A DNA stretch of 64,000 nucleotides from Thiotrichaceae bacterium UBA7357 (GTDB lineage: Bacteria > Pseudomonadota > Gammaproteobacteria > Eutrophobiales > Eutrophobiaceae): the NCBI GenBank assembly GCA_002470825.1, contig DKOR01000018.1:120482-184481 (forward strand). Direction: 5' to 3'. This document shows positions 8,907 through 27,254 of the stretch, piece by piece (position 1 is the stretch's first letter; each line of letters opens with the position of its first letter). The position numbers were made by a program, and so were the translations under genes. The notes below the pieces were generated by a model, which saw only the letters and a list, made by a program, of their open reading frames with translations, did not search any database and was not told where the DNA came from.

Positions 8907-10496
8907 TCAATTTTTACAAGAGTTATGTTGTTTATATAGATTGATTAGATTCTGTGTGGATGAGTCCATTCCTTTTGATGCTACCGTGTCTTCTAAATTA
9001 TCATTAATCTTAACAGCAAGCTTTTTTCCTAGCTCGACACCATGCTGATCAAAAGAGTTAATATCCCAGAGTAGGCCCTGTACAAATGTTCTGTGTTCAT
9101 AAATTGCAATCAAAGATCCTAGCGTTTTTGGTGTTAGCTTAGAATACAAAATAGTTGTACTTGGCTTGTTGCCGGGAAAATATTTTTTTGGGTCAGAGTT
9201 TTTTTCCCCTTGCATTAAAGCTTGACTCTGAGCAAAGCAGTTAGCAACTAATTGTGCATGATGCGTTTTATTTCCTTTTTTTGATAATGGCACAAGAAAA
9301 TCAATTGGGACGAAATGAGTTCCTTGGTGGAGTAATTGAAAAAATGAGTGTTGAGAGTTTGATCCTGTTGAACCCCAGACAATGGGCATTGTTTTGTAAT
9401 TAATGGGTTCGCCATTTAAATTAAATGATTTACCATTACTCTCCATAAAAAGTTGAGCGAGATAATCTGGAAAAAGTCTCAGTGATTCGTCATAAGGAAT
9501 GAATGCGTGTGTTTGTGCATCAAAGAAATTGGAATACCAATAATCAACTAAAGCAAGGATAATAGGGATATTTTTTTCTATTGTTGTTTTAGAAAAATGT
9601 TCATCTACCTCATGGGCGCCAGAAAGCAAGTCTTCGAAGTTATTGAAACCAATTGATAATGCAATAGGTAGTCCAATTGAAGACCATAATGAAAAACGGC
9701 CGCCTACCCAATCCCACAACTCAAAAATATTTTCACTCGTTATACCAAATTCACGTGCCGCATCGAGATTATTAGAAACGGCTACAAAATGTTTTCCAAT
9801 ATCATCACACCCAATTTTTTGCATCCATGTTTTTAGCGTCCTCGCATTTGTTAACGTTTCTATTGTTTTAAATGATTTAGATGAAACAATGAATAATGTT
9901 GTTTCAGGATTTATTGATTTTTGTAGAGATTCGATTGTTTGATAATCAATATTAGATATAAAAAAGGATCGTAAGTCATCATGTCGATATTTTTCTAGGG
10001 CATCAACTACCATTTTCGGACCTAGATCGGAACCGCCAATTCCTATATTAACAAAAGTATCAATAGGTTTGTTTGTCCATCCACGATGAGTTTTGTCATG
10101 AACCTTTTCAACAAAAGCTTTAATTCTATTGAGCTCAGCATGAACTTTTCCAACGATATCTTTATTATCTACTTCAATTTTTTGTCTAATTGTAGCTCTC
10201 AGCGCTGTGTGTAGCGCAGCACTATTTTCTGTTGTATTAATCTTCGCACCAGCGAACATTGATCTTATAGATTCTTCAACCTTTGATGCTTTTGCAAACT
10301 TGAAAAGTAATCCTAATGTCTCATCAGTAATAATGTTTTTAGAAAAATCTATGTAAAGTGTAGATAGTTGTTGCATATAGTTTTTGCCACGGTGTTGATC
10401 ATCCATAAATAAATCATGCAAATGGATATTATGACTTGCTTCAAAATGGACTGATAGTTGATGAAGGATCTCTTGCTTATCATTAGGAAGATTCAT
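8907..10496 (-). CDS. pgi: Glucose-6-phosphate isomerase
   Basis: 529 aa with the PGI signature (GGRFSLWSSIGLPIALSIG, SNGKS). Confidence 0.95.
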   Translation of the reverse strand: MNLPNDKQEILHQLSVHFEASHNIHLHDLFMDDQHRGKNYMQQLSTLYIDFSKNIITDETLGLLFKFAKASKVEESIRSMFAGAKINTTENSAALHTALRATIRQKIEVDNKDIVGKVHAELNRIKAFVEKVHDKTHRGWTNKPIDTFVNIGIGGSDLGPKMVVDALEKYRHDDLRSFFISNIDYQTIESLQKSINPETTLFIVSSKSFKTIETLTNARTLKTWMQKIGCDDIGKHFVAVSNNLDAAREFGITSENIFELWDWVGGRFSLWSSIGLPIALSIGFNNFEDLLSGAHEVDEHFSKTTIEKNIPIILALVDYWYSNFFDAQTHAFIPYDESLRLFPDYLAQLFMESNGKSFNLNGEPINYKTMPIVWGSTGSNSQHSFFQLLHQGTHFVPIDFLVPLSKKGNKTHHAQLVANCFAQSQALMQGEKNSDPKKYFPGNKPSTTILYSKLTPKTLGSLIAIYEHRTFVQGLLWDINSFDQHGVELGKKLAVKINDNLEDTVASKGMDSSTQNLINLYKQHNSCKN

Positions 10497-11351: not shown

Positions 11352-12644
11352 ATGACTGACAACATGCCAGAAAAAATTGGAAAATATGAAGTTCGAAATG
11401 AGATCAATCGCGGGAGTATGGGAGTCGTTTATCTTGGACACGATCCTTACGTAAATCGACATGTTGCTTTGAAGCTCGCATTTCTAGACTCACTTAATGA
11501 ACCAGAGTTTGGTGAGCGATATCGTAAAATGTTTTTTAATGAAGCTCATACTGCTGGTTTACTAACGCACCCCAATATTATTAATATTTATGATGCTGGT
11601 GTAGATGGTGACAATTGTTATATTGTTATGGAATATATTGAAGGTGGTAATACACTTAAGCCATATTGTGATTCCAATATGTTATTACCTATCAATAAAG
11701 TCGTTGAAATAATATTTAAATGTGCAAGTGCACTTGACTACGCACATCGACAAGGGGTTGTACATAGAGATATTAAACCTTCAAATATACTTTTTACGCC
11801 CGACCAAAATGTAAAGATTGCGGATTTTAGTATTGCTCATATATATAACGCAGATTCAACGACGACACAGGTGGGTGGAATGATGGGGTCGCCAAGATAT
11901 ATGTCTCCGGAACAACTTAAAGAAGAATACATAACTAACCAGAGTGATATTTTTTCATTAGGTGTGGTCATGTATGAGTTGTTGACAGGACGACAACCAT
12001 TTGCTGCAAATAGCTTTTCAGGATTGGTAAATAGTGTATTAAATGATGAGCCGCCGCCAATGAATAACTATCGGAATAATCTGCCTGAAGCTTTAAAAGA
12101 GATCGTAAATAAAGCTTTGAACAAAGATCTTTCTAATCGCTACAAGATGGGATTAGATTTTGCTGCAGATCTTACTAAAGCATTTGATATGTTGGGGAAG
12201 CCTAGAGAAGATATTTTTGTTAAAGAAAGATTTAATGCTGTCAAAACATTAGAATTTTTTGCTGATTTTGACGACACAGAAATTTGGGAAATTTTACATG
12301 CTAGTACATGGAAAGCTTATCATACTAATGATGATATTATTGTTGAAGGAGATATAGATGATTGTTTTTATGTCATCGTTAATGGCAGTGTTGAGGTGAC
12401 GAAAAATAGATCAGTCATTCGAAGGTTGGAAAAAGGCGATTGTTTTGGTGAAATGGGTTATCTATCTAAAACTAAGCGAACTGCCACTATCAAATCACTT
12501 GATTGTACGTCGATAATGAAAATTAATTCAACAGTGATTAATCAGGCATCAATAAATTGCCAGGTACGATTTTACAAGGTTTTTTTGAGAACCTTAATAA
12601 ATCGACTATCTGAAACTACAGAAAAGATATCTCAGGAGGTCTGA
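11352..12644 (+). CDS. Eukaryotic-like Ser/Thr protein kinase fused to a C-terminal cyclic-nucleotide-binding (CAP-family) domain
   Basis: 430 aa. Hanks kinase motifs are present (GRGSMGVVY, VALK, HRDIKPSNILF, ADFSIA, SPEQ); the C-terminal ~120 aa show a cNMP-binding pattern (IIVEGDIDDCFYVIVNGSVEV..GDCFGEMGYL..RTATIKS). Confidence 0.8.
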   Translation: MTDNMPEKIGKYEVRNEINRGSMGVVYLGHDPYVNRHVALKLAFLDSLNEPEFGERYRKMFFNEAHTAGLLTHPNIINIYDAGVDGDNCYIVMEYIEGGNTLKPYCDSNMLLPINKVVEIIFKCASALDYAHRQGVVHRDIKPSNILFTPDQNVKIADFSIAHIYNADSTTTQVGGMMGSPRYMSPEQLKEEYITNQSDIFSLGVVMYELLTGRQPFAANSFSGLVNSVLNDEPPPMNNYRNNLPEALKEIVNKALNKDLSNRYKMGLDFAADLTKAFDMLGKPREDIFVKERFNAVKTLEFFADFDDTEIWEILHASTWKAYHTNDDIIVEGDIDDCFYVIVNGSVEVTKNRSVIRRLEKGDCFGEMGYLSKTKRTATIKSLDCTSIMKINSTVINQASINCQVRFYKVFLRTLINRLSETTEKISQEV

Positions 12645-12962
12645 TTAATATCAGGGTATTAGGGGATAATGGGACAATATAGAATTAATTTATTGGATAT
12701 CCTTTATATGGAGGGTTCCAATGCTTGTAATGTGATTTAATAAAACATCTTATTTAATTGGACAATAATTTCTCATATGTTGGTTAAAGATATTAACTTT
12801 TAAATGAGCATGCAGTTAGAAGTTATTGTTGAAAATAGTAAAAATTAAAAACCTAAAACTTATAGGCTGAGAATGCTAAAGAAGATATAATATTCTTGAT
12901 GTTTCAAGTAATAACGAAATATATATATAACTTATATTACCTGTGTAAAGTATTAAATTTAG

Positions 12963-13036
12963 TGTCCCCAACAGGAGTCGAACCTGTAATCTACTCCTTA
13001 GGAGGGAGTTGCGTTATCCAATTACGCTATGGGGAC
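12963..13036 (-). tRNA. tRNA-Arg (anticodon CCU)
   Basis: 74-nt cloverleaf read by hand: GTCCCCA / GCGT..ACGC / ACTCC-CTCCTAA-GGAGT / ACAGG-TTCGACT-CCTGT / TGGGGAC-A. CCA is not encoded. Confidence 0.9.
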
Positions 13037-13061
13037 ATATGAAGTATATCCACACTCTAAT

Positions 13062-13093
13062 TTTAGCCATACTTTAGTTGCGCATCCAGTGTT
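13062..13093 (-). promoter_or_regulatory. Candidate sigma70 promoter for tRNA-Arg (TTGACA -35 with a weak -10)
   Basis: The reverse strand shows TTGACA, then an 18-20 nt spacer, then actaaa/TAAAGT about 25 nt upstream of the tRNA 5' end. Sequence inspection only. Confidence 0.25.
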
Positions 13094-13296
13094 ATCTGTC
13101 AATTAAGCTACTCAAGATCCTTATAATTCTACAAGTATATAAATAATACAATATACTAAAAGAAACAGGTCATAGTTTAAATCACGAATCAGGATTGGAT
13201 GGTTATATTCAACTCAGCTAATAATGTATTTTACTTTCATCATGATTATTATTTTGAAATGGTAAAGTAATCAAAATCAACAAAGGCATAACAAAT

Positions 13297-14259
13297 ATGT
13301 ACGATACATCATCTTTACTCAATCAAAGAAAATTTCCAATGATTAAGCGAAAGAGCCTAACTACGCTACAAATCAATATTGGCTTGAAGTGTAATCAGCA
13401 GTGTTTTCATTGCCATGTTAATTCGAGCCCCAAAAGAAAAGAAAAAATGTCTAATGCCACTATTAAGGCAATTAAGCTATTTCTAAAAAATAATAATATT
13501 GAATCACTTGATATCACTGGTGGTGCGCCAGAACTTCACTCAGAATTCAGATCTCTTATAAAATATGCGCGTGAAAATGATGTGCATGTTATAGATCGGT
13601 GTAATCTGACTATTTTAGAAGAGCCAGGGATGGAATACCTTGCGCAATTTTTAGCAGATTATGAAGTAGAAATTATAGCTTCTCTACCTTGCTATGAACT
13701 AGAAAATGTTGATAAACAACGAGGTGTAGGTGTGTTTGAGAAAAGTATCAGGGGTTTGAAAAAATTGAATAAAGTAGGTTATGGACATTCAAATTTGGAG
13801 TTACCTTTGAATTTAGTATTTAATCCTCAGGGGGCAGCATTGCCACCACCACAAGATTATCTGGAACGAACTTATAAAAAAGAATTATTGGAGAGGCATG
13901 GAATTAAATTCAATAAACTTTTTACATTATGTAATATGCCAATAAACAGATTTGGAAGTACCTTGGTATCCAAAAATCAATTAGATGACTATATGAGAAT
14001 GCTTACGGGTTCGCATAGGGAAGAGAATCTAAGAGATGTGATGTGTCGTAGTTTAATCAGTGTTGACTGGCAAGGTTATGTATATGATTGTGATTTTAAT
14101 CAAATGTTGAATATAAATTTAAATGATGCCGAAGAAAAAATATCGATTTCTGATTTGGTTGGTAATGATATTGAAGGTGATATAATTGCAGTGCGGGATC
14201 ATTGTTATGGTTGTACGGCAGGGCAAGGTAGTAGCTGTAGCGGTGCATTAACTGCTTGA
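13297..14259 (+). CDS. Radical SAM / C-terminal Cys-rich domain protein, ArsS-like (TIGR04167-type rSAM/selenodomain protein, Cys version)
   Basis: 320 aa with an N-terminal CNQQCFHC (CX3CX2C), the ITGGAPELH glycine-rich motif and a C-terminal Cys cluster CYGCTAGQGSSCSG. Immediately followed by its two usual partner transferases. Confidence 0.75.
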   Translation: MYDTSSLLNQRKFPMIKRKSLTTLQINIGLKCNQQCFHCHVNSSPKRKEKMSNATIKAIKLFLKNNNIESLDITGGAPELHSEFRSLIKYARENDVHVIDRCNLTILEEPGMEYLAQFLADYEVEIIASLPCYELENVDKQRGVGVFEKSIRGLKKLNKVGYGHSNLELPLNLVFNPQGAALPPPQDYLERTYKKELLERHGIKFNKLFTLCNMPINRFGSTLVSKNQLDDYMRMLTGSHREENLRDVMCRSLISVDWQGYVYDCDFNQMLNINLNDAEEKISISDLVGNDIEGDIIAVRDHCYGCTAGQGSSCSGALTA

Positions 14260-14265
14260 GATTAT

Positions 14266-14946
14266 ATGCAAAAAAAAATATCTATTATAATCCCAACACT
14301 AAATGAAGCCGACCAAGTTGAACGACAGCTGGCTAAGCTTCAGACGTTACGGAAAAATGGTCATGAGGTGATTTTAGTAGATGGTGGCAGTATTGATGGT
14401 ACAGTTTCATTAGTAATATCATTATGTGATCAAGTTTATGAGTCTCAACGATCACGCTCAATTCAAATGAACTATGGAGCAAGAAAAGCGACGGGAAAAT
14501 GTTACGTATTTTTACATGCTGATACAATTCTTCCAGATGACATTATTCAGTTTTTGTTGAAGATTAATAATATTGAAGAAAAATGGGGCAGGTTCGATAT
14601 AAGTCTGTCAGGAAGACACTGGCTATTCCGTGTTATTGAGTCATTTATTAATTGTCGATCAAGTTTTACAGGTATTGTTACAGGTGATCAGGTTATTTTT
14701 ATTGGAGAGGAATTGTTTTCCAGAGTGGGAGGATATCCAGAAATAGCTTTAATGGAAGATATTGCTATATCTAGTTTGTTGATTAAATTTTCAAAGCCAA
14801 TTCGAACTAGAAAAAAGGTAATCAGTTCTAGTCGACGTTGGGAAAAAAATGGAATATTTAAAACAATTATAACAATGTGGATATTAAGATTATTATATTT
14901 CTTTGATTATGATATTAATAAAATAGCAAGATACTATGGAAAATGA
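14266..14946 (+). CDS. Family 2 glycosyltransferase (rSAM/selenodomain-associated transferase 2, TIGR04283-like)
   Basis: 226 aa with the ISIIIPTLNE...VILVDGGSIDGT GT2 N-terminus. Starts 6 nt after the rSAM stop and overlaps the next gene by 11 nt. Confidence 0.75.
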   Translation: MQKKISIIIPTLNEADQVERQLAKLQTLRKNGHEVILVDGGSIDGTVSLVISLCDQVYESQRSRSIQMNYGARKATGKCYVFLHADTILPDDIIQFLLKINNIEEKWGRFDISLSGRHWLFRVIESFINCRSSFTGIVTGDQVIFIGEELFSRVGGYPEIALMEDIAISSLLIKFSKPIRTRKKVISSSRRWEKNGIFKTIITMWILRLLYFFDYDINKIARYYGK

Positions 14947-15580
14947 ATTTTCTAGAGGAGCTCTCTTAATCTTTACAAAAGCACCTGTGCGCGGACATGT
15001 TAAAACACGATTAATCCCAAGCATTGGTCTAGAGCATGCTACTTCGATATATCAAGAAATTTTAACAAAGACGCTAAGCACGGCAAGAAAATCTAATTTT
15101 TCTTCTATACAGGTATGGGTTGATGGTGGGGTTGAGCATGCTTATTTTAAGCGTTTAAAAAGTAGGCATAAGGTTAAATTTTACAAACAGAAAGGTAAGG
15201 ATTTAGGAGTACGAATGATGAACGCCTTTAAAATTGCTTTACGTCAATATTCTCATGCTGTTTTAATTGGTGGAGACTGTCCTTCATTAGAATATTTAGA
15301 TTTAATAATGGCAAGTGACTATCTTAAGAACAATACAGATGTAGTCTTAGGCCCTGCAATTGATGGCGGTTACTATTTGATAGGTTTAAATAAAAACAAT
15401 GCTCAAATATTCACAAATGTAAAATGGGGTAAAAGCGGAGTGTTTGCTCACACTTGTGAAAATATAAGTGCTCTAGGCTTGAAGCTTGACTTGTTGCCAG
15501 AGCGTTGGGATGTTGACCGAACTGTTGATTTACTACCTTACTTCAAGATGAAACGAAAAAACGCCACTCTTTACTACTAA
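14936..15580 (+). CDS. DUF2064 / MobA-like nucleotidyltransferase-fold protein (rSAM/selenodomain-associated transferase 1, TIGR04282-like)
   Basis: 214 aa with LIFTKAPVRGHVKTRL...DLGVRMMNAF...LIGGDCP...GPAIDGGYYLIG. The G-x-D-x-P and DGGY motifs are typical of the DUF2064 family. Confidence 0.65.
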   Translation: MENEFSRGALLIFTKAPVRGHVKTRLIPSIGLEHATSIYQEILTKTLSTARKSNFSSIQVWVDGGVEHAYFKRLKSRHKVKFYKQKGKDLGVRMMNAFKIALRQYSHAVLIGGDCPSLEYLDLIMASDYLKNNTDVVLGPAIDGGYYLIGLNKNNAQIFTNVKWGKSGVFAHTCENISALGLKLDLLPERWDVDRTVDLLPYFKMKRKNATLYY

Positions 15581-15853
15581 ACAACAAACCTGTTTCGACA
15601 AGTGTCAGTGAAATGACAGAATGTTGAGTCTGTTCTTCATTTGTGTGGTCATCAGTATTTGATGTTTATGGTGAATCTCAATGTCAAGATTAACGATTAA
15701 ATCAATTAGTAAATAGGTCATATTTGATGTGAATGCCCTACACTTTTAGCAGATAAATAGTTTCTATAAGAACCAATACTCAAGTTTATTTTAACTTTCT
15801 GTAACGCATTGCGTAGACATACTTTATTCTATAATCTCCGATACGGTAGAGAA

Positions 15854-15944
15854 GGAGAGGTGTCCGAGTGGTTTAAGGAGCACGCTTGGAAAGCGTGTAT
15901 ACGTTAATAGCGTATCGAGGGTTCGAATCCCTCTCTCTCCGCCA
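15854..15944 (+). tRNA. tRNA-Ser (anticodon GGA), type II with long variable arm; CCA encoded
   Basis: GGAGAGG acceptor, anticodon arm CACGC-TTGGAAA-GCGTG, variable arm ATACG..CGTAT, T-arm GAGGG-TTCGAAT-CCCTC, then TCTCTCC-G-CCA. The six-frame ORF 15824..16138 (-) overlapping it is spurious. Confidence 0.9.
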
Positions 15945-16227
15945 TTACTATGAATAAACCATAAACTTTCATTATACATACCCAAAGGCATACTCCAAAT
16001 AATTAACTGTAGTTTGTGTATTGTTATATTGAGTAACGTGTTTGTGCCGTGAAAAATAATTGGTCTAGTCGAAAAATCGACTTCTGCTAACCACACCTCC
16101 GGGATCCCCCCGTGTTCTGAAAAACGCATAGGCACCATCTACATAGCATTTTGGATGGGTGATTTTAGTTTTTGTACATCTGCTTACTATGATAGTTTTA
16201 GAATGAGAAAGACAAATATTAGGACCA

Positions 16228-17319
16228 CTATAATTTTGTATTTTTTATACGAATAATACAGTCAATTGTAGCATGCTGGAAATCCATAAATTCATTCGGT
16301 TTACATCCAATAACTTTTGGATCAAATGACCCCAAAACATCAATTTCTAATTGGTTGGCTAATTTCCTTATTAAAGGCTCGACGACTTCCATTGTTAGTC
16401 TGTTTTTCGAATTAATGTTAGCCCATACATTTGGATGGTAGGGAGTAAGAAGAAAAACTGGAGTAACACCTTTGTTAATTAGAGAGCGTATGTGTCTACG
16501 ATATAGATCTAATGCATTAAGATCATAGTATGTGCCTTCCGTAAGATATGTTGGTTCTATCAACGGGATTGGAAAAACTTTCGAATTATCTATTTTTTTT
16601 GCAGAATAGATGATACTTCCATCAGGTAACAAAACAGAGTCTTCTAATCCAACCTCTTCGTCAAAAGAAGGAGCATCCTTGATTGATTCTTTGCCATTAG
16701 CGGCCAAAAACATTGCTTTTTTTATAGATCGAATCGTATATTCAAGACTTAATAGATTTGATAGTTTAGCACTGTTGAACTTGTCAGAGTTTGTCGTGAG
16801 TGTATCAACCTGTTCCAACTCCTTCAATGCATTCATATATACATCTGGGTACGCATTCTGCCAAGCTAAGCCTTTACCAATATGGAATACCCAAGGATCT
16901 ATACAAAAAATAATTTTATTTGGTTTTTGATTAGAGTTGGTAGCAGCAAAGGAAAGTGCAATATGATCTTCAAGTAGAGCACCAGAAACTGCGAGATTAA
17001 AAATCTTTTCGCACATTTCTGCCAAGGAACTTTTTTTTCGAAAACTACTCAATTGCATTGCGTGGCTGCTACCAATTATCACGCAGTCAACTTCACCAAC
17101 TGATTGCGCTAATTCAATCTTAATCTTTCGATCATTCCATGAATGAGATTTGAAAAATAAGCCATGATGAGATTGTATCAATCTATTAGCGTATTCCTTC
17201 GAGCTATTACTGGATACCCTGTAAATTCCTGCAGGGTCATACACAATGTTGACTGAAACAGCTGCGGACAACACTAATGTAGCAAACAATCCTAATATTA
17301 TCAGATAGCGTTTCGACAT
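16228..17319 (-). CDS. Periplasmic SGNH-like O-acyltransferase partner protein (AlgJ/AlgX/DltD/PatB-like)
   Basis: 363 aa with an N-terminal signal anchor, a GSSH (GDS-like) motif at VIIGSSHAMQ and a C-terminal DFQH. Immediately downstream of the MBOAT gene, 3-nt gap. Confidence 0.5.
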   Translation of the reverse strand: MSKRYLIILGLFATLVLSAAVSVNIVYDPAGIYRVSSNSSKEYANRLIQSHHGLFFKSHSWNDRKIKIELAQSVGEVDCVIIGSSHAMQLSSFRKKSSLAEMCEKIFNLAVSGALLEDHIALSFAATNSNQKPNKIIFCIDPWVFHIGKGLAWQNAYPDVYMNALKELEQVDTLTTNSDKFNSAKLSNLLSLEYTIRSIKKAMFLAANGKESIKDAPSFDEEVGLEDSVLLPDGSIIYSAKKIDNSKVFPIPLIEPTYLTEGTYYDLNALDLYRRHIRSLINKGVTPVFLLTPYHPNVWANINSKNRLTMEVVEPLIRKLANQLEIDVLGSFDPKVIGCKPNEFMDFQHATIDCIIRIKNTKL

Positions 17320-17322
17320 TGT

Positions 17323-18867
17323 TCAGAACTGAAAATATAGGAATTGGCTCGTCTTTTTAAGATTCAGCAAAGCAAATCCTAAAACAAGCCCAGCCATTAC
17401 TGCCCATACCTTGGTAGGACGCCAACTCAACCAACTTATCTGACGCTCATTCCGACTTGAGTCCAATGCAAGTGAGTAATGGGTGAGCCATTGCTGAACA
17501 TTGGGCAATATCCAGACAACAAATAACCCTCCAACAAGCCAACAGATAGTAACCTTTCCAGCACCACCACCTATTAATGGGGCCAAACCATTAAAAATGA
17601 TGTAATCGCTCCGTACCATGTGGCTCAGGAATGGGTAAAACTGATTGGGTAAACTAATCCCATTCAGCCCTATCATGCCCGATAAAATACTCATTGCTGC
17701 ATCCATATTTTCCGCACGGAAAAACACCCATGCAGCCGTTACCGCTATAAAAGTCAAAAAAATCATAAATATATGGGCAAATTTTCCTAATGGCACGGCG
17801 CTTGTTCCAATCAGTGTACGCCAACTATGGTTGAGCACTAAGTACGCACCGTGCAACCCTCCCCAAATAATGAAATTCCACCCAGCACCGTGCCATAAAC
17901 CGCCTAGAAGCATGGTTGCCATTATATTCCGATAGCGGATGAATTTACCATGACGGTTGCCCCCGAGAGGTATGTAGAGATATTCTCGTAAGAATGCGGA
18001 CAATGTTATGTGCCAACGCCGCCAGAAATCAATAATATTTGAAGCTTTGTAAGGTGAATTGAAGTTCAGCGGAAGACGAATATTGAACATGCGCGATAAA
18101 CCTATAGCCATATCCGAATATCCTGAAAAATCGAAATACAATTGCAGGGAGTAAGCTAGTGCCCCAAACCAAGCTTCAAAAAACATTGACTGCTCACCAC
18201 TAGCAGCGCCATTAAAAACCGGTGTGGCATATAAGGCGAACTGGTCTGCAAGTACAACTTTTTTGAATAACCCAACAGCAAAAATTGTAATGCCAATAGC
18301 CAAATGATCATAATTTAGTTTATATACCCAATCTTTTGCAAACTGAGGCATCATTTCCTTATGGTGGACAATCGGGCCAGCAATTAACTGAGGAAAGAAA
18401 GTGACAAATAAACAATAATGCAGAAAATTATATTCTCTTGTTTTTCCTTTATATGCATCGACTAAATAAGCTATTTGCTGAAAGGTAAAAAAAGAAATTG
18501 CCAAAGGTAAAATAATGGTCTTTAAATTAAAGTCTAATCCAATTGCCAGGTTCAAATTATCTACAAAAAAATTGGCGTATTTAAAATAACCGAGAAGTAC
18601 AATATTCCCAGAAATCCCAATAAAAAGTAATGATTTCTCATGGGACCAGACCTTCTTTACTAACATCACTCCAATCGAATAATTAAACAGAATCGAGAAT
18701 AGTATTAATCCAAGATAAGCAGGATTCCACCATCCATAAAAAAAAAGTGAGGCACCCACTAACCAAGAAATAGCAATTCTATGATGCCCTTTCTTGCCAA
18801 TCATAAAAAAGCCAATCAATGTAAATGGTAAAAATAGAAAGATGAATGCGTAAGAGTTGAAAAGCAT
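17323..18867 (-). CDS. MBOAT-family membrane-bound O-acyltransferase (AlgI/DltB/PatA-like)
   Basis: Start taken at MLFNSYAFIFLFLPF (ATG at 18867..18865), which is the typical AlgI/DltB N-terminus; the ORF is open further upstream to 18984. MBOAT signature WRRWHITLSAFLREYLYIPLGG plus an invariant His. Confidence 0.85.
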   Translation of the reverse strand: MLFNSYAFIFLFLPFTLIGFFMIGKKGHHRIAISWLVGASLFFYGWWNPAYLGLILFSILFNYSIGVMLVKKVWSHEKSLLFIGISGNIVLLGYFKYANFFVDNLNLAIGLDFNLKTIILPLAISFFTFQQIAYLVDAYKGKTREYNFLHYCLFVTFFPQLIAGPIVHHKEMMPQFAKDWVYKLNYDHLAIGITIFAVGLFKKVVLADQFALYATPVFNGAASGEQSMFFEAWFGALAYSLQLYFDFSGYSDMAIGLSRMFNIRLPLNFNSPYKASNIIDFWRRWHITLSAFLREYLYIPLGGNRHGKFIRYRNIMATMLLGGLWHGAGWNFIIWGGLHGAYLVLNHSWRTLIGTSAVPLGKFAHIFMIFLTFIAVTAAWVFFRAENMDAAMSILSGMIGLNGISLPNQFYPFLSHMVRSDYIIFNGLAPLIGGGAGKVTICWLVGGLFVVWILPNVQQWLTHYSLALDSSRNERQISWLSWRPTKVWAVMAGLVLGFALLNLKKTSQFLYFQF

Positions 18868-19999
18868 ATTTTTATTATATCTAACGACCTCTAAATTGTA
18901 ACGCAACATCTTTCGGTATGAAAAAAATAAGAAGTGAAGTGTTGAATAATGGAACACTATGCGTATTTTGATAGTAAGGAACATACTTCATAGGAACTAA
19001 GACTCAGAAGGATGGGTACTAACTGATTTAGAAATGGACCATCTTTTTGGTAAGGATTTAGTTCTCTCAGTTTTACTGAAAACATCTCTTGCTGCTGTGA
19101 CTGTTGTAAATAACAATTAGCTTAATCTAGCTGTATTGCCAATAAGTTACTATAACGATGAAGAGCTGTTTTTTGTAAATTAATTCTGTAGCTTATGTTG
19201 GATTGTAAGCTTCTTAATCGCTTTACTTCCTCGAGTCTTTTCGTTATCTATTACGACATATGTAAAGGACATACCAGAAAAAATATTTCTTGAAATAGCA
19301 TTCAATTTAGATTTACCAGCAATGAAAGTTCTTCATTTTTTTGTAGATAAATATCAATCCGTCTTTACACACAGAAGACATAAATGGTTAAGAAGAGGTA
19401 TAAAAGTATATGCAGAGGTATTTATGGCACTTTTACATAAAAAATATCTGAGTTGGCTTATCTATAATAGTTAAGAAAAGTGATGTTCTTTCTAAGGTGC
19501 CAACATAAAACGTATCCTGAGAATCAAGGTAACTAGGATGTGCTGTTTCTATCCTCAGAATTATTCTCTAAGAGTAATCCATTTCCTGTTCTTGAGTGTA
19601 GTAAAATTTGTCGATATGTCGTAACATTTTGATGTAATAAAATTATACAGATTGTGTAACAGAAGGTTGTCTAAATTAGGTGAGATTCCCTATATTTTCT
19701 CAATTTTAGCGAAATTAATAGAGATACTGGATAACTCTAGACTGTAACCACTGCCATATTCTGTATGCGACTAATTGAATAAAATTATATTTCTAGATTT
19801 AGATAATGATCCTATATTTGATATTCAGATACTATATGAATATAGAGTAACTGTGATTTGTAATGAACGCAGATTCAATTATATTATAAATATTAAGATG
19901 CTGGGTCGATTATTCTAATGAGATAAAAGGATTTACTGCTATACATTACGTATAAAGGCTTTTTCGATAACTTCATCAATTATAAATTTACTTCACACA

Positions 20000-21157
20000 A
20001 TGCCAAATATATTTAAATTTTTGTATCAACTCTATATAGCCTTATTTTATATATTTTTTGTCGCGAACACCTATGCCTACGAGAATGATGTCAATGCATC
20101 ATCTTGTGAAGAACGACAGCAATTTACCTTTAGCTGGCAATTTAATACACACTGCGACATGGTCCCAAGAGGTGGAACCACTCATGGAACAAAAATATCT
20201 TTGGATCCAAGCCCACATCAAGGCTGGTTAGATCTAAAAGAAAAAGGGCTATCGAAGTTTGAAAAAGATCGAAGAGCTATATTAGCTATGTCCGGGCCTT
20301 ATCGCACAAGTTTTGATTTTATTGAAATAGTCGGTTATATCCCTAGTTTCCGCCCAGACAAACCATATCAATCTTGGGGGACTGAATATGTTTACGTAGT
20401 TGAAGATCAGGACGATTTTATTAGCCTGCAACATATCATGGTTATGTATGTAAAAACCAACGATAAAATTTCAGAGCCAATAGTAATGAAACATTGGCGT
20501 CAGGATTGGCAATATGAGAAACAAGAAATTCTTAGCTACATTGGCAATAACACATGGAAAAAGGTAAGTCTGTCAAAAGAAGAAATTAATGGTAACTGGT
20601 CACAAGCTGTTTATCAGGTTGAAGATTCTCCTCGATATGAATCATTTGGTCGATGGGAACATAACTCTGATTTTTCCACTTGGCTGAGTGCAAAGACGTG
20701 GCGTCCCCTGCCTCGACGCGAATACAGTGTCCGTGATGACTATCAGATTCTCGATGGCTTTAATCGTCATACTATAGTGCCGAGCGGTTGGGTTCATGAA
20801 CAGGAAAACTACAAATTAGTCCTAAATTCCAATGATAAATTTAAACAAAAAAAATCTTATTTATCTAAGGAGTTAGGTTTAAATCGATATGAACGAATTG
20901 TCGAACATGATTTCACTCCGGGTCACCGTTATTGGGAAAAAACCAACTCTTACTGGCGAGATGTACGAATTATATGGTCAGAACTTATTCATAAAAAATC
21001 AGTGCTAGTGATGGAGAAATTAGTAGATGGACAACCTCTTTTTATCAACCTGTTCGATTACGCGGAAAAATTACAAATTCAGCCATATGATTCTGAAAAG
21101 GGAAAAATATTTATACGTAAGACTCTAACCGATTATATAAAGATTCATGCTTCCTAG
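20000..21157 (+). CDS. Hypothetical secreted/periplasmic protein (signal peptide, Trp/Tyr-rich, no recognised domain)
   Basis: 385 aa. The N-terminus IALFYIFFVANTYA|YEN looks like a Sec signal peptide. No family recognised by eye. Preceded by a 1 kb ORF-free AT-rich tract. Confidence 0.55.
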   Translation: MPNIFKFLYQLYIALFYIFFVANTYAYENDVNASSCEERQQFTFSWQFNTHCDMVPRGGTTHGTKISLDPSPHQGWLDLKEKGLSKFEKDRRAILAMSGPYRTSFDFIEIVGYIPSFRPDKPYQSWGTEYVYVVEDQDDFISLQHIMVMYVKTNDKISEPIVMKHWRQDWQYEKQEILSYIGNNTWKKVSLSKEEINGNWSQAVYQVEDSPRYESFGRWEHNSDFSTWLSAKTWRPLPRREYSVRDDYQILDGFNRHTIVPSGWVHEQENYKLVLNSNDKFKQKKSYLSKELGLNRYERIVEHDFTPGHRYWEKTNSYWRDVRIIWSELIHKKSVLVMEKLVDGQPLFINLFDYAEKLQIQPYDSEKGKIFIRKTLTDYIKIHAS

Positions 21158-21218
21158 ATTGAGAATAAGAGTTACGCCATAACTTTTTTTAATGCATAGG
21201 CTTTATCACTATAAATCG

Positions 21219-21821
21219 TTAATGGATGATTTTAGCCTGTTCGATTAGACGAATATTTATTTGAATACGTTCTAGGGGATTGTCTTTGCTATCTCGTTTT
21301 TGTGAAACAATCTTGTCTACGATTTCTATACCTTCAGTCACTTCACCAAACACAGTATATTGTCCATCAAGAAAGTTTGAGTCCTTCACAACAATAAAAA
21401 ATTGAGAGCCGGCACTGTTTGGATCTTGGGAACGTGCCATCGAGAGGACGCCTCTTTTATGGGGACGTTTATTAAATTCAGAAGGGATTTCGTAATCAGG
21501 GCCACCTGTACCGTAGAGTGATTTGTCTGTACCTTTTGTTAATGGATCTCCTCCCTGAATCATAAAACCTGGAATGACGCGATGAAAAATAGTCCCGTCA
21601 TAAAATCCTGATCCTGCTAATGTTAAAAAATTATCGACATGTTTAGGCGCATCATCAGGGAAAAATCGAAGTTCGATATTACCAAATTTCGTTTCGATGA
21701 CGCTTGTTGGTAATGATTCCTCAGCAAAGACAAAAGCAGATATTATCAGAAGTAAAAAACCAATATTGAAACGACAAATATTTTTTGTATTAATAAAAAT
21801 CATAGACAAAGTATATTCCAT
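21219..21821 (-). CDS. ppiA: Periplasmic peptidyl-prolyl cis-trans isomerase, cyclophilin type
   Basis: 200 aa with a signal peptide plus FHRVIPGFMIQGGDP and SMAR..PNSAGSQFFI cyclophilin motifs. Confidence 0.9.
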   Translation of the reverse strand: MEYTLSMIFINTKNICRFNIGFLLLIISAFVFAEESLPTSVIETKFGNIELRFFPDDAPKHVDNFLTLAGSGFYDGTIFHRVIPGFMIQGGDPLTKGTDKSLYGTGGPDYEIPSEFNKRPHKRGVLSMARSQDPNSAGSQFFIVVKDSNFLDGQYTVFGEVTEGIEIVDKIVSQKRDSKDNPLERIQINIRLIEQAKIIH

Positions 21822-21925
21822 TTAAAGATTAGGATGTTTTCCAACTTATGATATAAAGAAATAATTTTTAGTTCAATAATAAAACTTTATATCAATTATG
21901 CTAATACGTATTATCATTAACAATT

Positions 21926-23209
21926 ATGCAAGATTTAAACAAATTACTTGATATAGATAAAAATTTAATCTGGCATCCTTATAGTGCCATGTCTTCTGAC
22001 TTACCGATTTACCATGTTGACTCTGCCAATGGTGTGCGTCTAAAACTCAGTAATGGACAAGAACTGATTGATGGGATGTCATCTTGGTGGAGTGTTATTC
22101 ATGGCTATAATCATCCAGCAATGAATCAAGCTTTAGAACGACAGCTTAAGGATATGGCGCATATCATGTTCGGTGGTTTGACTCATACGCCCGCAATTAG
22201 ACTAACTGAAAAGATAATAGACATCACCCCCGAACCTTTAAATGCTGTCTTTTACTCCGATTCTGGTTCAGTTGCAGTTGAAGTTGCGATGAAGATGGCG
22301 ATTCAATATTGGCATGCTAAAGGAAAAACAAAGCGACAACGATTTATCAGTTTACGTTCGGGATATCATGGTGACACCTTAGGTGCGATGTCAGTATCTG
22401 ACCCTGAGACAGGCATACATAGCTTGTTTTCTGGCATGCTTCCCAAACAGATATTTATCGAACAACCTCAATGTCGCTTCGGTGAGCCTTGCACAGATAA
22501 TAATATTGCAGTACTCAAGAAGGTATTAACGGAATATGGAAAACACTGTGCGGCTTTGATTATAGAGCCGATAGTACAAGGTGCGGGTGGAATGTGGTTC
22601 TATTCGGCAGATTATTTAGTGAAAGCTCGTAAATTATGTGATGAACACGATTTGTTGCTAATCTTCGATGAAATAGCGACAGGGTTTGGTCGAACAGGAA
22701 AATTATTTGCCTGCGAACATGCTAATGTTGTTCCCGATATAATGTGTCTTGGCAAGGCTTTGACTGGTGGATATTTGTCTTTAGCAGCAACATTAACAAA
22801 ACAAGAGATATATCTAACAATTGACGGAGGTGACCCTGGGGTTTTTATGCATGGGCCTACTTTTATGGCGAATCCACTGGCTTGTAGAGCGGCACTTACT
22901 AGTATCTGTTTATTACTAGAGTCTAAATGGCAAGTAAATATTAATCGAATTCAACAATTATTAGAGAAAGGATTGGCTCCTTGTCGTAATTCATCTAAGG
23001 TAAATGATGTCCGTGTTTTAGGTGGCATTGGGGTTGTAGAATTGAAAAAACCAGTTGATATGTACACAACAGTACCAAAATTTGTAAAAGCAGGAGTTTG
23101 GATACGTCCTTTTGGTAAGTTAATATATGTTATGCCTCCATACATCATTAGTGATGCAGACTTAGCAACTTTGACTAGTGTCATAGTCTCTGTCATTGAT
23201 GATAGTTAG
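21926..23209 (+). CDS. bioA: Adenosylmethionine-8-amino-7-oxononanoate aminotransferase
   Basis: 427 aa with LIFDEIATGFGRTGKLFACEH and the PLP-Lys GKALTGG; BioA-like throughout. Confidence 0.9.
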   Translation: MQDLNKLLDIDKNLIWHPYSAMSSDLPIYHVDSANGVRLKLSNGQELIDGMSSWWSVIHGYNHPAMNQALERQLKDMAHIMFGGLTHTPAIRLTEKIIDITPEPLNAVFYSDSGSVAVEVAMKMAIQYWHAKGKTKRQRFISLRSGYHGDTLGAMSVSDPETGIHSLFSGMLPKQIFIEQPQCRFGEPCTDNNIAVLKKVLTEYGKHCAALIIEPIVQGAGGMWFYSADYLVKARKLCDEHDLLLIFDEIATGFGRTGKLFACEHANVVPDIMCLGKALTGGYLSLAATLTKQEIYLTIDGGDPGVFMHGPTFMANPLACRAALTSICLLLESKWQVNINRIQQLLEKGLAPCRNSSKVNDVRVLGGIGVVELKKPVDMYTTVPKFVKAGVWIRPFGKLIYVMPPYIISDADLATLTSVIVSVIDDS

Positions 23210-23279
23210 AAAATTCTTATTTTAAATAAACACGATGTCCAAATGATTTTGCAGTTGGTACCATCCTTACTTGTTCAAT

Positions 23280-23391
23280 GGTGGCCTTTACCGGTCCCCT
23301 CGCAACACGAAATTGTGAATCCCGCCAGGTCCGGAAGGAAGCAACGGTAGCAGTCGATGTGTGTGACGGGGTAGGGACGGTATAGGCCGCC
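23280..23391 (+). ncRNA. ffs: Signal recognition particle RNA (4.5S RNA, small SRP RNA)
   Basis: Contains the near-invariant domain IV sequence GTGAATCCCGCCAGGTCCGGAAGGAAGCAACGGTAG. The 5' GGTGGCC pairs with the 3' GGCCGCC and the RNA is followed by a T8 run (23396..23403). Typical position just upstream of dnaX. Confidence 0.85.
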
Positions 23392-23528
23392 TCCATTTTT
23401 TTATACAGTATTTGTATGTCATTTGTGAAAATTCAAAACGTTTCGCGGCTATGGGTTTCCTTATGTATAATGAGGATAAATCATGATGTTATTTTAGTGA
23501 TAATTAAACAACAAAAAAACAAAAACCT

Positions 23529-25121
23529 ATGACTTATCAGGTGCTTGCACGAAAATGGCGGCCAAAATCATTCCAAGAAATGGCCGGACAATCACATGTT
23601 TTAAAAGCATTGACTAACGCGCTAGACCAAGATCGTTTACACCATGCTTATTTGTTTGCTGGTACACGTGGAGTGGGCAAGACAACCTTGGCTAGAATTC
23701 TGGCTAAATGTCTAAATTGTGATACTGGTGTAAGTTCGACTCCTTGTGGAATATGTAATGCTTGTGTTGCAATAGACGAAGGTAGATTTGTTGATTTAAT
23801 TGAAGTCGATGCCGCATCTCGCGCCAAAGTAGAGGAAACACGTGATTTGATGGATAATGTCCAGTACGCTCCAAGCATTGGTAGATATAAAGTTTATCTC
23901 ATTGATGAAATCCATATGTTTTCTAATCATAGCTTCAATGCCTTACTAAAAACACTTGAAGAACCACCACCGCATGTTAAATTTTTACTGGCAACAACTG
24001 AACCTAAAAAATTACCCATTACGATATTGTCGCGATGCTTACAATTTAATTTAAGTCATTTAACTAATCATCAAATTACGAAACAGGTTGAAATGATATT
24101 GGGGCATGAAAAGATAAATTTTGATTTTGAATCAGTAGAGCATATTGCTCGTGGCGCGACTGGAAGTATGCGCGATGCGCTAAGTTTATTAGATCAAGCG
24201 ATTGCTTATTGTGGTGGAATTTTGGAAGAATCTCAGGTCCGCGCTATGATGGGAACGGTCAACAGCAGTGACTTGAATGGTCTTATTCAGGCATTGATTG
24301 ATGCTGATCCAGAATCATTGTTAAGCACAATAGAATCTATTGCATTACAAAACCCTGATTTTGATGCTTTGTTGGCAGAACTATTAAGCCTGCTACAAAA
24401 AATAGCAATAATACAAATATTGCCAGCAAATTCTAGCAACCCAATAAAAGATAATCCTATATTAGTTGATTTTGCTAATGTGATGAATAAAGAAGACACT
24501 CAACTTTATTATCAAATAGGTATGATGGGGCGTAAAGATATTCATTTTGCCCCGGATGTTAAGTCAGGCTTTGAAATGGTTATGATAAGGATGTTGGTAT
24601 TTAAACCAAACATAGAAAATGAACCAAAATTTCAAAAATCAAACACTAAAACACCAACTGAAGTTCTAGCAAAGAATTCTGTGACACCAATAGCAACACA
24701 GAAAGCAAAGGAGAATAAAACATCAATAAAAAAAATAACGTCCAATAATGAATGGAAAAAAATCACTGAAAAAATGGAGCTGGCTGGACTGGTGAAAGAA
24801 TTGGCTGAAAATTGTGTATTGAAGGCACATGTTGATAATCGTATAGCGCTAGCATTATCACCAACACAAGAACACTTACTACTTAATCAAAATCAAAGAG
24901 ATCGTTTTGAGCAAGCGATTCAAACTCATTTTGGACAAAATGTTAAATTAGTGATTCTGCTGGAAGACTCAACAAATGAAACACCTTCCGAAACCAATGC
25001 TCGAGTAAAGAGAGAAAAACAAAAAGCGGCTGAAAATTCTTTAAAAAACGATCCAACAGTTAAGTCATTAATGGATACATTTGATGCATCAATTGATCAA
25101 GATTCAATTCAACCACAATAA
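23529..25121 (+). CDS. dnaX: DNA polymerase III subunits gamma/tau
   Basis: 530 aa with the Walker A GTRGVGKTT, the zinc module CGICNAC and the ATTEP..KLP box. Confidence 0.95.
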   Translation: MTYQVLARKWRPKSFQEMAGQSHVLKALTNALDQDRLHHAYLFAGTRGVGKTTLARILAKCLNCDTGVSSTPCGICNACVAIDEGRFVDLIEVDAASRAKVEETRDLMDNVQYAPSIGRYKVYLIDEIHMFSNHSFNALLKTLEEPPPHVKFLLATTEPKKLPITILSRCLQFNLSHLTNHQITKQVEMILGHEKINFDFESVEHIARGATGSMRDALSLLDQAIAYCGGILEESQVRAMMGTVNSSDLNGLIQALIDADPESLLSTIESIALQNPDFDALLAELLSLLQKIAIIQILPANSSNPIKDNPILVDFANVMNKEDTQLYYQIGMMGRKDIHFAPDVKSGFEMVMIRMLVFKPNIENEPKFQKSNTKTPTEVLAKNSVTPIATQKAKENKTSIKKITSNNEWKKITEKMELAGLVKELAENCVLKAHVDNRIALALSPTQEHLLLNQNQRDRFEQAIQTHFGQNVKLVILLEDSTNETPSETNARVKREKQKAAENSLKNDPTVKSLMDTFDASIDQDSIQPQ

Positions 25122-26100: not shown

Positions 26101-26299
26101 TGATTAGTTGTTTATAAATAAGTTAAAGTGACATATTTGTTCTTCTAAATTGGAGTACATCATATTTTAAGAATGTAATATGAACTTACTGCTAATGATG
26201 ATGATATGTAAGTCAAAAAAACAAGATTATTTTCAAGTAAACGTATAAAGCTAAATTTTTTACGAAATATCTCTCATTTTATAGGTCGGCACGGCTAGT

Positions 26300-26860
26300 T
26301 TCTTGGCCTTGGACTATTACCATTTCTTTGTTTAAGAGTTTACCGTGTCGCTATGGACTTTGACAATAGCAGTACTATTCTTAAAAGAAGTTGTAACTAT
26401 AAAAAAGATAATAGCCGTTTTATTTGGAATGGCAGATATCTTAGTTATATTAAAACCAGGTATTGAAATAATTGAACTGACATCACTTGTTGTTTTGATT
26501 GCAGTTATTGGATATGCAGTTTCACATGTTACTACCAAATCATTATCAAACACGGAGTATTCATTAACAGTTTTGTTTTATATGTGTCTTGTACAGTCAA
26601 CAGTTAGTTTTTTATTGACTATTAATAATTGAATATTTCCTGATTTGAAACAATGGCTATGGTTTGGGATAGTTGCTATAGTAGCTTTAATAGCGCATCA
26701 CTCTATTACTAATTCGATGAAACTATAGGAAGCGGTAATTGTAGTAACTCTAGATTTCTTGCGACTGTCATTGATCGCTATTATCGGCGTCATTTGTCAT
26801 GATGAGGCATTTGAGATTGTATTAATTTTAGAGGGGGTGTTTAATACTGTTTGACAATTT
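26300..26860 (+). pseudogene. Remnant of an EamA/DMT-family transporter gene (5'-truncated, frameshifted)
   Basis: Three short ORF pieces in different frames carry EamA-like TM segments: ILVILKPG...LIAVIGYAVSHVTTKSL, then WLWFGIVAIVALIAHHSITNSMKL, then AVIVVTLDFLRLSLIAIIGVICHDE. There is no intact start or first domain. Confidence 0.4.
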
Positions 26861-26960
26861 GATGAATTTGAACATACAAAAATAATAATAAATATAACAA
26901 AGTTAGTTATAGTCTTGATTTGAATTCATAACATTGCGCTGATGTATTACTTATTACCAT

Positions 26961-27254
26961 TTATTTTCCTTGATTGAAATGATAAAAGGAATCGTTTAGA
27001 TAAGTTGTAACTTGATCTGTCTCCTCTTCAAACCACATTAACTCAGACATTAACTCACATTGAACGACACGTTCATGTAGTAACGGATAGCTTTGAATTT
27101 TGCTTTCTTTTCGAGTGTAGAGAGAATGTTCATGACAACGTACACAATTGTCGTTGTGTAGTATCTTGCCATTTTCACTATCAAAAGCATATGCTGTTGA
27201 GTACAACAATGTGAAAACCATGAAGTTTAATAAAGTTCTGTAAAGTAAATTCAT
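26961..27254 (-). CDS. Small secreted protein with a single CxxCH motif (possible heme-binding or metal-binding periplasmic protein)
   Basis: 97 aa with signal peptide MNLLYRTLLNFMVFTLLYSTAYA|FD and the motif CVRCHEH. Its ATG overlaps the stop of the upstream M48 protease gene (ATGA), so the two are translationally coupled. Confidence 0.45.
   Translation of the reverse strand: MNLLYRTLLNFMVFTLLYSTAYAFDSENGKILHNDNCVRCHEHSLYTRKESKIQSYPLLHERVVQCELMSELMWFEEETDQVTTYLNDSFYHFNQGK

Follow-up and report, generated by a model that had tools for sequence, protein, structure and literature searches.

A two-layered variable site beside tRNA-Ser(GGA) in an uncultured marine gammaproteobacterium: a DUF6607 haemophore-family gene and a putative O-acylation cassette with an IS481-family relic

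The 64-kb stretch of contig DKOR01000018.1 analysed here (the window) comes from Thiotrichaceae bacterium UBA7357, an uncultured marine gammaproteobacterium with a low G+C content of 36.9%. Between a tRNA-Ser(GGA) gene and the backbone genes for a peptidyl-prolyl isomerase (ppiase), BioA and DnaX, it contains a variable chromosomal site that has been filled in at least two layers. We consider it probable that the older layer is a gene of the DUF6607 haemophore family and the younger one an acquired acylation cassette, composed of a membrane-bound O-acyltransferase (MBOAT) and an SGNH-fold partner, together with the scar of an IS481-family insertion sequence (IS). The identities of the genes, their boundaries, their presence or absence among relatives and the IS relic can be read directly from the data, and the features of the site and its two conserved anchors, tRNA-Ser(GGA) on the left and the ppiase gene on the right, are as follows:

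13297-15580, plus strand: arsenosugar-type trio ArsS / TIGR04283 / TIGR04282 (NCBIfam names)
15854-15944, plus strand: tRNA-Ser, anticodon GGA (ARAGORN; Rfam tRNA, 54.8 bits)
15945-16227, no strand: lineage-specific spacer of 283 bp from the tRNA 3' end to the SGNH gene stop codon, without a counterpart in the sister species
16228-17319, minus strand: gene for the predicted membrane-anchored SGNH-fold partner, 363 aa (structure prediction and conserved motifs)
17323-18867, minus strand (maximal open reading frame to 18984): MBOAT O-acyltransferase gene, 514 aa from M40 (PF03062)
18868-19852, no strand: 985 bp of the non-coding tract that precedes the DUF6607 gene, lineage-specific and absent from the sister species
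19424-19588, minus strand: IS481-family transposase relic (blastn, tblastn, NF033577)
19853-19999, plus strand: upstream region of the DUF6607 gene, common to the sister species (84% identity, blastn)
20000-21157, plus strand: DUF6607 gene, 385 aa (Pfam)
21219-21821, minus strand: cyclophilin-type ppiase (PF00160, E 9e-53)

Relatives were found via BioA, with one genome per species and 10 kb of flank, and the proteins of the window were mapped onto the nearest ones. One relative (L008, BioA 79%) has an empty site: the ArsS-GT2-DUF2064 genes are kept, tRNA-Ser lies at 9137-9227 and the ppiase stop codon comes 42 bp after it. The other relatives carry different cargo, namely a gene for a P-type ATPase of 898 aa between tRNA and ppiase gene (L010), an RND/MFP/OMF metal-efflux operon with an IS6-type transposase fragment upstream of the ppiase gene (L007) and a gene for a GGDEF protein at the equivalent site (L009); in L011, bioA directly follows the tRNA. 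The ppiase gene adjoins bioA in L007-L010 and also in L087, the sister species, and in the window it is followed by bioA, the signal recognition particle RNA and dnaX.

The sister species resolves the layers. It shares about 90% nucleotide identity with the window, and its DUF6607 protein is 93% identical. Homology in blastn runs from 13223 to 15945, one nucleotide past the tRNA, and starts again at 19853 to continue through DUF6607, ppiase, bioA and dnaX. Between the two break points the window holds 3,907 bp and L087 holds 530 bp of unrelated non-coding DNA, which matched nothing searched and shows no trace of the MBOAT gene, its partner or an IS. The locus is two-layered because the DUF6607 gene is common to both sister species (it is not in the outgroups), while segment 15946-19852, comprising the MBOAT pair and 985 bp of the tract, is specific to this species in the comparison with its sister. 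The DUF6607 gene is older than the cassette, since it is present at the equivalent place in the sister species. An earlier note on this DNA had suspected an insertion hot-spot and had proposed a comparison for presence or absence among relatives. That comparison bears out a variable accessory locus with a lineage-specific cassette segment; the grouping of cassette, tract and secreted-protein gene into one unit does not hold.

The direction of the event is suggested to be a gain. Alternatively, cassette and tract could be ancestral at the site and have been lost or replaced in the sister species, so that the difference would be a deletion. The unrelated DNA that both lineages hold between the tRNA and the DUF6607 promoter does look like replacement and not like a clean insertion. 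We nevertheless regard this alternative as unlikely: the pair is absent at the locus in five more distant relatives, the 530 bp of the sister species retain no remnant of it, and the pair is IS-associated both here and elsewhere. Furthermore, the third-position G+C of the MBOAT gene is atypical (z = +2.4 against the genes of the window, the most atypical value among nearby genes).

The position of the left break, together with the different cargo in relatives, is also what a classical integrase-mediated island integrated site-specifically into the tRNA-Ser 3' end would produce. This origin is very improbable. With the tRNA as the last conserved base, a break at its end is expected anyway. No integrase gene or remnant turned up in the six-frame Pfam and PHROG scans of the tract, and the 283-bp spacer, checked only by tblastx and blastn against the related loci and by blastn against plasmids, gave no match. 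The tRNA 3' end is not repeated (best 16/25, chance level), there are no meaningful direct repeats, and the sole trace of mobile DNA is the DDE transposase of the IS481 family. Despite the variable content at the tRNA 3' end, we rejected an assignment to the tRNA-associated classical islands.

Contigs from at least six independent marine metagenome assemblies (L001-L006) match the window, compared at 10000-31000, with 99.94-100% identity over 19-21 kb and differ by 0-11 substitutions, and the population thus appears strikingly clonal and widely sampled. The sole indel among them is a 10-bp insertion (CATAAGCTTA) at 15960 in L001, 15 nt past the end of tRNA-Ser, which looks like an imperfect tandem duplication. 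Variants at 96-98% identity exist besides these near-identical contigs. A metagenome scan for diverged copies of the tract returned eight loci, none of them informative.

Two further signals at the tRNA were set aside. Rfam returned two tRNAs and the signal recognition particle RNA at the gathering threshold over the whole window and nothing else; a sub-threshold match to the sX4 small RNA (sRNA) at 15842-16054 (plus strand, 36.6 bits, gathering score 70) covers tRNA-Ser and 110 nt downstream and was dismissed, as we judged it to be driven by its tRNA part. An open reading frame (ORF) at 15824-16138 on the minus strand, opposite to tRNA-Ser and overlapping it, is repeatedly called by metagenome gene callers with 66-104 aa and is probably spurious.

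The tract between the MBOAT and the DUF6607 gene was the main curiosity of the earlier note. Its interval 18985-19999 indeed contains no ORF of at least 60 codons (the longest reach 41-50 aa), and it is among the two longest gaps without genes that the 64-kb window has. The left border had been drawn too far in. Homologues of the MBOAT align only from residue 38-40 of the maximal 553-aa ORF, and gene callers give three lengths (493, 528 and 553 aa); judged from this alignment, the start is likely M40 at 18867 and the 553-aa ORF over-extended, and the non-coding stretch therefore comprises 18868-19999 (1,132 bp). The "visibly lower" GC content of the tract is no anomaly either. At 30.6%, it does not differ from the average for all intergenic DNA of the window (30.6%), and the low GC therefore says only that the tract is non-coding.

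Among the options raised for the tract, a decayed gene is the one that was found. In blastn against plasmids, 19488-19553 (tract positions 621-686) matches 17 records from Vibrio, Aquicella, Arsenophonus and Roseobacter with 79-86% identity (best E 3e-7 in 7.3 Gb), and where annotated, these matches lie inside transposase genes of the IS481 family (ISVvu4), on the strand opposite to the query. In tblastn, the minus strand of 19552-19490 (IETAHPSYLDSQDTFYVGTLE) aligns with transposase residues 158-178 (IETAHPGYLGSQDTFYVGNLK) with 17/21 identities (E 1.6e-7). The 71-residue translation around this site has a sole NCBIfam match among 18,950 models, NF033577 'IS481 family transposase' (E 9.8e-4; 18.7 bits, under the cut-off of 224), which maps to 19424-19588. 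By these similarities, the tract carries what is left of an IS481-family transposase gene: a piece equivalent to about residues 150-200 of a transposase of about 346 aa, interrupted by stop codons. The search for pseudogene traces suggested by the earlier note thus succeeded by another route than tblastx: tblastx and blastn of the tract and the left spacer against the fetched loci, the rest of the window and phage genomes returned only the 147 bp common to the sister species, and when the tract was translated in six frames (stops as X) it had no Pfam or PHROG match, scans which missed the short IS relic.

An intact IS481 element measures about 1.2 kb, close to the size of the tract, and the 985 lineage-specific bp are probably for the most part a decayed element of this type tied to the arrival of the cassette. 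By sequence, only the 147 bp at 19853-19999 are the native upstream region of the DUF6607 gene. The second large gap of the window (26101-27250) is an EamA transporter pseudogene, with matches at about 26215-26902 on the plus strand and several in-frame stops, which is 65% identical to an intact 284-aa gene at the equivalent place in the sister species (L087 14202-15056). As this gap is also a decayed gene, the genome keeps gene wrecks.

A functional tract was weighed against this. It could act as an extended regulated promoter or as the 5' leader of either the MBOAT operon or the DUF6607 gene, encode an sRNA, or encode a small protein, for which a 50-aa ORF at 19322-19474 (plus strand) is the candidate. 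The divergent orientation of the flanking genes, promoter-like hexamers near both ends of the tract and the repeated calling of the 50-aa ORF by metagenome gene callers speak for such a role; upstream of the DUF6607 gene, a consensus scan (not evidence of function) gave the promoter-like site TTGTAA-16-TATATT at 19858-19885. All in all, we find a functional tract quite unlikely. Promoter-like sites are no commoner than in shuffles (22 compared with 23.4 +/- 4.1) and terminator-like sites are also at background. The strong regulated promoter of the secreted protein that had been envisaged is unlikely: the sister species keeps the gene with only the last 147 bp of upstream DNA in common. The upstream regions of MBOAT genes in related cassettes (about 20 to 500 bp) have no similarity to the tract. 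The idea of an unannotated sRNA found no backing, as Rfam over 12000-25000 at E <= 1 gave no match in the tract and folding in the tract proper is nowhere better than in shuffles. Folding in 120-nt windows (29 per strand) gave lowest z values of -1.9 to -2.1; the tract proper stays above -2, and the -2.1 values occur only in the window 18800-18919, which overlaps the MBOAT 5' end. Finally, the tract holds a broken transposase gene, to which the 50-aa ORF is partly antisense (overlap 19424-19474); this ORF is probably spurious. Hence, the tract most likely turns out to be dead DNA.

The two genes of the younger layer are separated by 3 nt. The earlier note had them in the right place as an operon "directly after" tRNA-Ser, but they lie on the minus strand, converge on the tRNA and end 283 bp away from it. 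The proposed pairing of an MBOAT with an extracytoplasmic SGNH protein is confirmed by the PF03062 match, a predicted SGNH fold and conserved motifs. The match of the first protein to PF03062 reaches 109.3 bits (cut-off 27, E 3.1e-31). It is homologous to DltB of known structure (6bug; phmmer E 7.7e-29), and the histidine motif W-x-R-W-H is kept, with 'fwrrwhitls' aligned to 'fwnrwhmsls' of DltB 6bug; we take the histidine of this motif to be catalytic, as in DltB. Its relatives count thousands at about 60% identity and are annotated as AlgI, DltB or MBOAT.

By sequence, the partner matches nothing in Pfam, NCBIfam or the PDB, in the last case not even with a profile, and its SGNH nature is drawn from structure prediction and conserved motifs only. 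An AlphaFold model built from 33 homologues (pLDDT 89.4) shows an SGNH alpha/beta fold, and in Foldseek, DltD structures rank first (E 8.6e-6) at only 9-15% identity. The residues G83-S84-S85 and D346-x-x-H349 make up the block I and block V motifs of SGNH proteins; they do not vary among 33 sequences with identities of 26-72%, and an N-terminal membrane anchor is seen in the alignment. According to the model and the alignment, the partner is a membrane-anchored SGNH-fold protein with a DltD-like fold. It is probably a remote relative of DUF1574, an SGNH family that a review gives as lacking a known function or structure (PMC9487903). DUF1574 (PF07611) is matched by 5/33 partner relatives (best E 8e-6) and by the window protein itself not at E <= 1; the family models of PatB (DUF459) and AlgX/AlgJ gave no match. 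A profile search of 1.84 billion representatives collected 3,134 members, and a word-indexed search gave 45 relatives, which undercounts the family. Judged by these sequence searches, the partner family is real, of moderate size and uncurated, and probably neighbours DUF1574.

The context of the pair in other genomes indicates a possible substrate. In every related locus with room for both, the MBOAT gene is directly upstream of the partner gene, and most of these loci are clusters for surface polysaccharides. Those of L091 and L096/L097 encode NeuB, a CMP-sugar synthetase, a UDP-GlcNAc 2-epimerase, DegT aminotransferases and a Wzx-type flippase. Wzy-like, dTDP-sugar and glycosyltransferase genes surround it in L094/L095, and GT4, epimerase, AsnB-like and heparinase II/III-like genes are near it in L101. 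In L092, the pair is followed by a DUF4372 + DDE_Tnp_1 transposase. It is worth adding that in L094 (5916-11864) and L095 (899-5321), from another marine lineage, the pair sits in an O-antigen-like cluster bracketed by fragments of IS3 (HTH_Tnp_1 + rve) and IS66 (TnpB, DDE C-terminal), an arrangement that looks like a composite mobile unit.

As the earlier note had correctly remarked, there is no alg, dlt or pat context within the window. On the basis of the contexts elsewhere, the cassette appears to be mobile and IS-associated, and it may O-acylate a surface glycan encoded elsewhere in the genome, with O-acetylation as the most likely modification; both the acyl group and the target polymer are what we infer from these analogies. 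A different activity has to be considered here, as the nearest solved relatives of the two proteins are DltB and DltD and an FkbH-like gene adjoins the pair in L104: instead of acetylating a polysaccharide, a Dlt-like pair might add D-alanine, another aminoacyl or a longer acyl group to a lipid or glycolipid. We hold this to be improbable. The MBOAT reaches 165 bits with the DltB equivalog TIGR04091, under its cut-off of 375 bits, and genes for DltA or DltC do not accompany the pair in the window; membership in the Dlt system was rejected on these two counts.

The gene of the older layer encodes the 385-aa secreted protein that had been described as an orphan with no recognisable domain. The signal-like N-terminus noticed at that time, a hydrophobic segment, is indeed present (read from the sequence, without a predictor), but the protein matches Pfam DUF6607 (PF20311, E 8.8e-70) and is homologous in sequence and fold to RhuH (PDB 8xjc), a haemophore of Riemerella anatipestifer (PMC11967795). 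RhuH is secreted with outer-membrane vesicles, binds haem with a dissociation constant of 3.4e-11 M and takes it from haemoglobin. Its iron ligand is His96, the exchange of which (H96A) costs about six orders of magnitude of affinity, and the propionates are held by Arg143, Tyr144, Arg170, Arg183 and Gln198. The rhuH gene is Fur-regulated and divergent from the receptor genes rhuR-rhuA, and homologues are found predominantly in Weeksellaceae and Flavobacteriaceae (PMC11967795).

We transferred these residues onto the window protein using the 8xjc alignment, in which the residue types at 96, 143, 144, 154, 160, 170, 183 and 198 agree with the numbering of that publication. His96 corresponds to His165 within an invariant KHWRQDW motif, Arg143 to Arg212, Tyr144 to Tyr213, Arg170 to Arg240 and Gln198 to Gln268. 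Thus, 5/6 of the ligand and propionate residues are kept, and four of these five are invariant in 40 homologues, Gln268 being the one that is not. DUF6607 homologues number more than 7,000; among the 120 with the best scores, identity is 43-64% (mostly 52-64%), and Aliiglaciecola, Shewanella and Gilvimarinus are represented. An alignment of 40 sequences, with identities of about 52-64%, has about 80 invariant columns. The large gammaproteobacterial clade goes beyond the families in which RhuH homologues were described as predominant.

TonB-dependent receptor or TonB-ExbBD genes stand beside DUF6607 genes in three of the four other genomes examined (L090, L108 and L109). In Aliiglaciecola (L109, 1-7167), one strand reads TonB-dependent receptor, Fur-family regulator, DUF3450, ExbB, ExbB, ExbD, TonB, TPR and DUF6607. 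In Shewanella (L108, 1-7158), a TonB-dependent receptor gene lies four genes upstream of DUF6607 on the same strand and is followed by genes for P_proprotein and Lcl_C-domain proteins. These two co-directional strings, at the end of which the DUF6607 gene stands, are candidate uptake systems for the DUF6607 family. In L090, the DUF6607 gene and an ECF sigma / FecR pair are divergently oriented, and TonB-dependent receptor and PepSY_TM genes come farther on in the same strand. The fourth genome, L093, has no receptor gene nearby and a 15/19 Fur-box-like site upstream of the DUF6607 homologue. Overall, these contexts would fit TonB-dependent uptake, and the conserved residues suggest that the window protein binds haem.

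Combining both layers, we propose the following course of events. The older layer would provide a Sec-secreted DUF6607 protein of the RhuH haemophore family, which most likely binds haem via His165 and passes it to a TonB-dependent receptor encoded elsewhere in the genome. Later, a two-gene minus-strand cassette with about 1 kb of dead DNA (15946-19852) would have been acquired horizontally. The polytopic MBOAT is presumed to move an acyl group, probably acetyl, across the inner membrane, and the anchored DltD-like partner (Ser84/85, Asp346, His349) to hand it on to a surface polysaccharide; the settings of the homologues suggest, by analogy, an O-antigen- or capsule-type glycan, possibly containing nonulosonic acid. 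The IS481-family element could have arrived with the cassette or landed beside it, and would then have decayed to intergenic base composition.

Several observations weigh against this explanation. Both functional assignments, glycan O-acylation and haem binding, draw on homology and on contexts in other genomes, and the window itself contains no polysaccharide cluster. On the side of the haemophore, the propionate holder Arg183 of RhuH is replaced by Gly253, a position that is not conserved; neither the neighbouring genes nor the ten large window ORFs that were scanned include a receptor gene; and the Fur-box scan of the tract and the region upstream of DUF6607 gave no site of at least 14/19 and one weak 13/19 match at 19109. 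Regarding the IS, only about 55 transposase codons are recognisable, and in a frameshift-tolerant protein-DNA alignment the downstream flank of the relic is not significant and the upstream one is marginal though colinear (z 2.2-2.6). There are no terminal inverted repeats in the tract (best 18/29 to 20/35, background level), no intact transposase ORF exists (none above 50 aa), and the derivation of the whole 985 bp from an IS is not proven. Last, a gain in this lineage and a loss or replacement in the sister lineage are not polarised with certainty.

A more far-reaching proposal, to which we give slightly less than even chances, is that the DUF6607 proteins, with thousands of homologues, represent a large gammaproteobacterial, often marine clade of RhuH-type haemophores, which has kept the histidine ligand, carries an extra cysteine-containing N-terminus and is often encoded next to TonB-ExbBD or TonB-dependent receptor genes, and that, separately, the MBOAT and its DUF1574-like partner form an IS-borne, self-sufficient glycan cassette. 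If so, a near-clonal, widely sampled planktonic bacterium would scavenge dissolved or particulate haem via a secreted haemophore, and a haemophore family that has so far been characterised only in Flavobacteriales would extend to free-living ocean bacteria. The MBOAT and DUF1574-like pair would re-decorate surface glycans. The re-annotation of DUF6607 makes haem acquisition testable in uncultured marine Gammaproteobacteria, and it gives access to DUF6607 overall. Likewise, the partner belongs to an SGNH family without a characterised member, and its recurrent setting in nonulosonic-acid and O-antigen clusters hints at the substrate. A surface-glycan modifying cassette moved by IS is expected in bacteria under phage and grazer pressure and represents routine genome plasticity.

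Apart from the variable site, three observations in the window deserve mention. Just upstream of tRNA-Ser lies an arsenosugar biosynthesis trio consisting of the radical SAM protein ArsS (TIGR04167, 445.7 bits), the glycosyltransferase TIGR04283 and TIGR04282 (DUF2064), which is kept in L008 and L087. The ORF at 5955-7592 (minus strand) is a fusion of a phosphoenolpyruvate mutase and a nucleotidyltransferase domain and suggests phosphonate biosynthesis for a surface glycan or lipid. At 11352-12644 (plus strand), a Ser/Thr protein kinase domain is fused to a cyclic-nucleotide-binding domain (precomputed Pfam of an identical metagenome gene).

In comparison with known systems, the relic resembles the IS481 family (e.g. 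ISVvu4) in about 55 codons that match the conserved start of the catalytic core (IETAHPGYLGSQDTFYVG...). It differs in being broken by stops, with the rest of the gene unrecognisable and no target duplications found. The DUF6607 protein also departs from RhuH in its N-terminus and its host: in the gammaproteobacterial proteins, the N-terminus is longer by about 60 residues, a low-confidence part of the model in which Cys36 and Cys52 are conserved, and the host is a marine gammaproteobacterium outside the predominant Weeksellaceae and Flavobacteriaceae range (PMC11967795).

The cassette shares with DltB/DltD of Gram-positive D-alanylation a polytopic MBOAT followed by an N-terminally anchored extracytoplasmic protein of predicted SGNH fold with a Ser/Asp/His triad, and no solved structures are closer to the two proteins than those of DltB and DltD. 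Unlike the Dlt system, it has neither a DltA ligase nor a DltC carrier gene alongside, its neighbours being a tRNA, non-coding DNA, the DUF6607 gene and the ppiase gene; furthermore, the MBOAT scores under the DltB equivalog cut-off, the host is Gram-negative, and homologous pairs sit among polysaccharide genes. The pair is also like the PatA/PatB, AlgI/AlgJ/AlgX and WssH/WssI-type systems, in which the acyl group crosses the inner membrane by way of an MBOAT and is then placed on the polymer by a periplasmic SGNH protein. Nothing at the locus is a new kind of system, and its value lies in the re-annotation of DUF6607 and in the substrate hint for an SGNH family.

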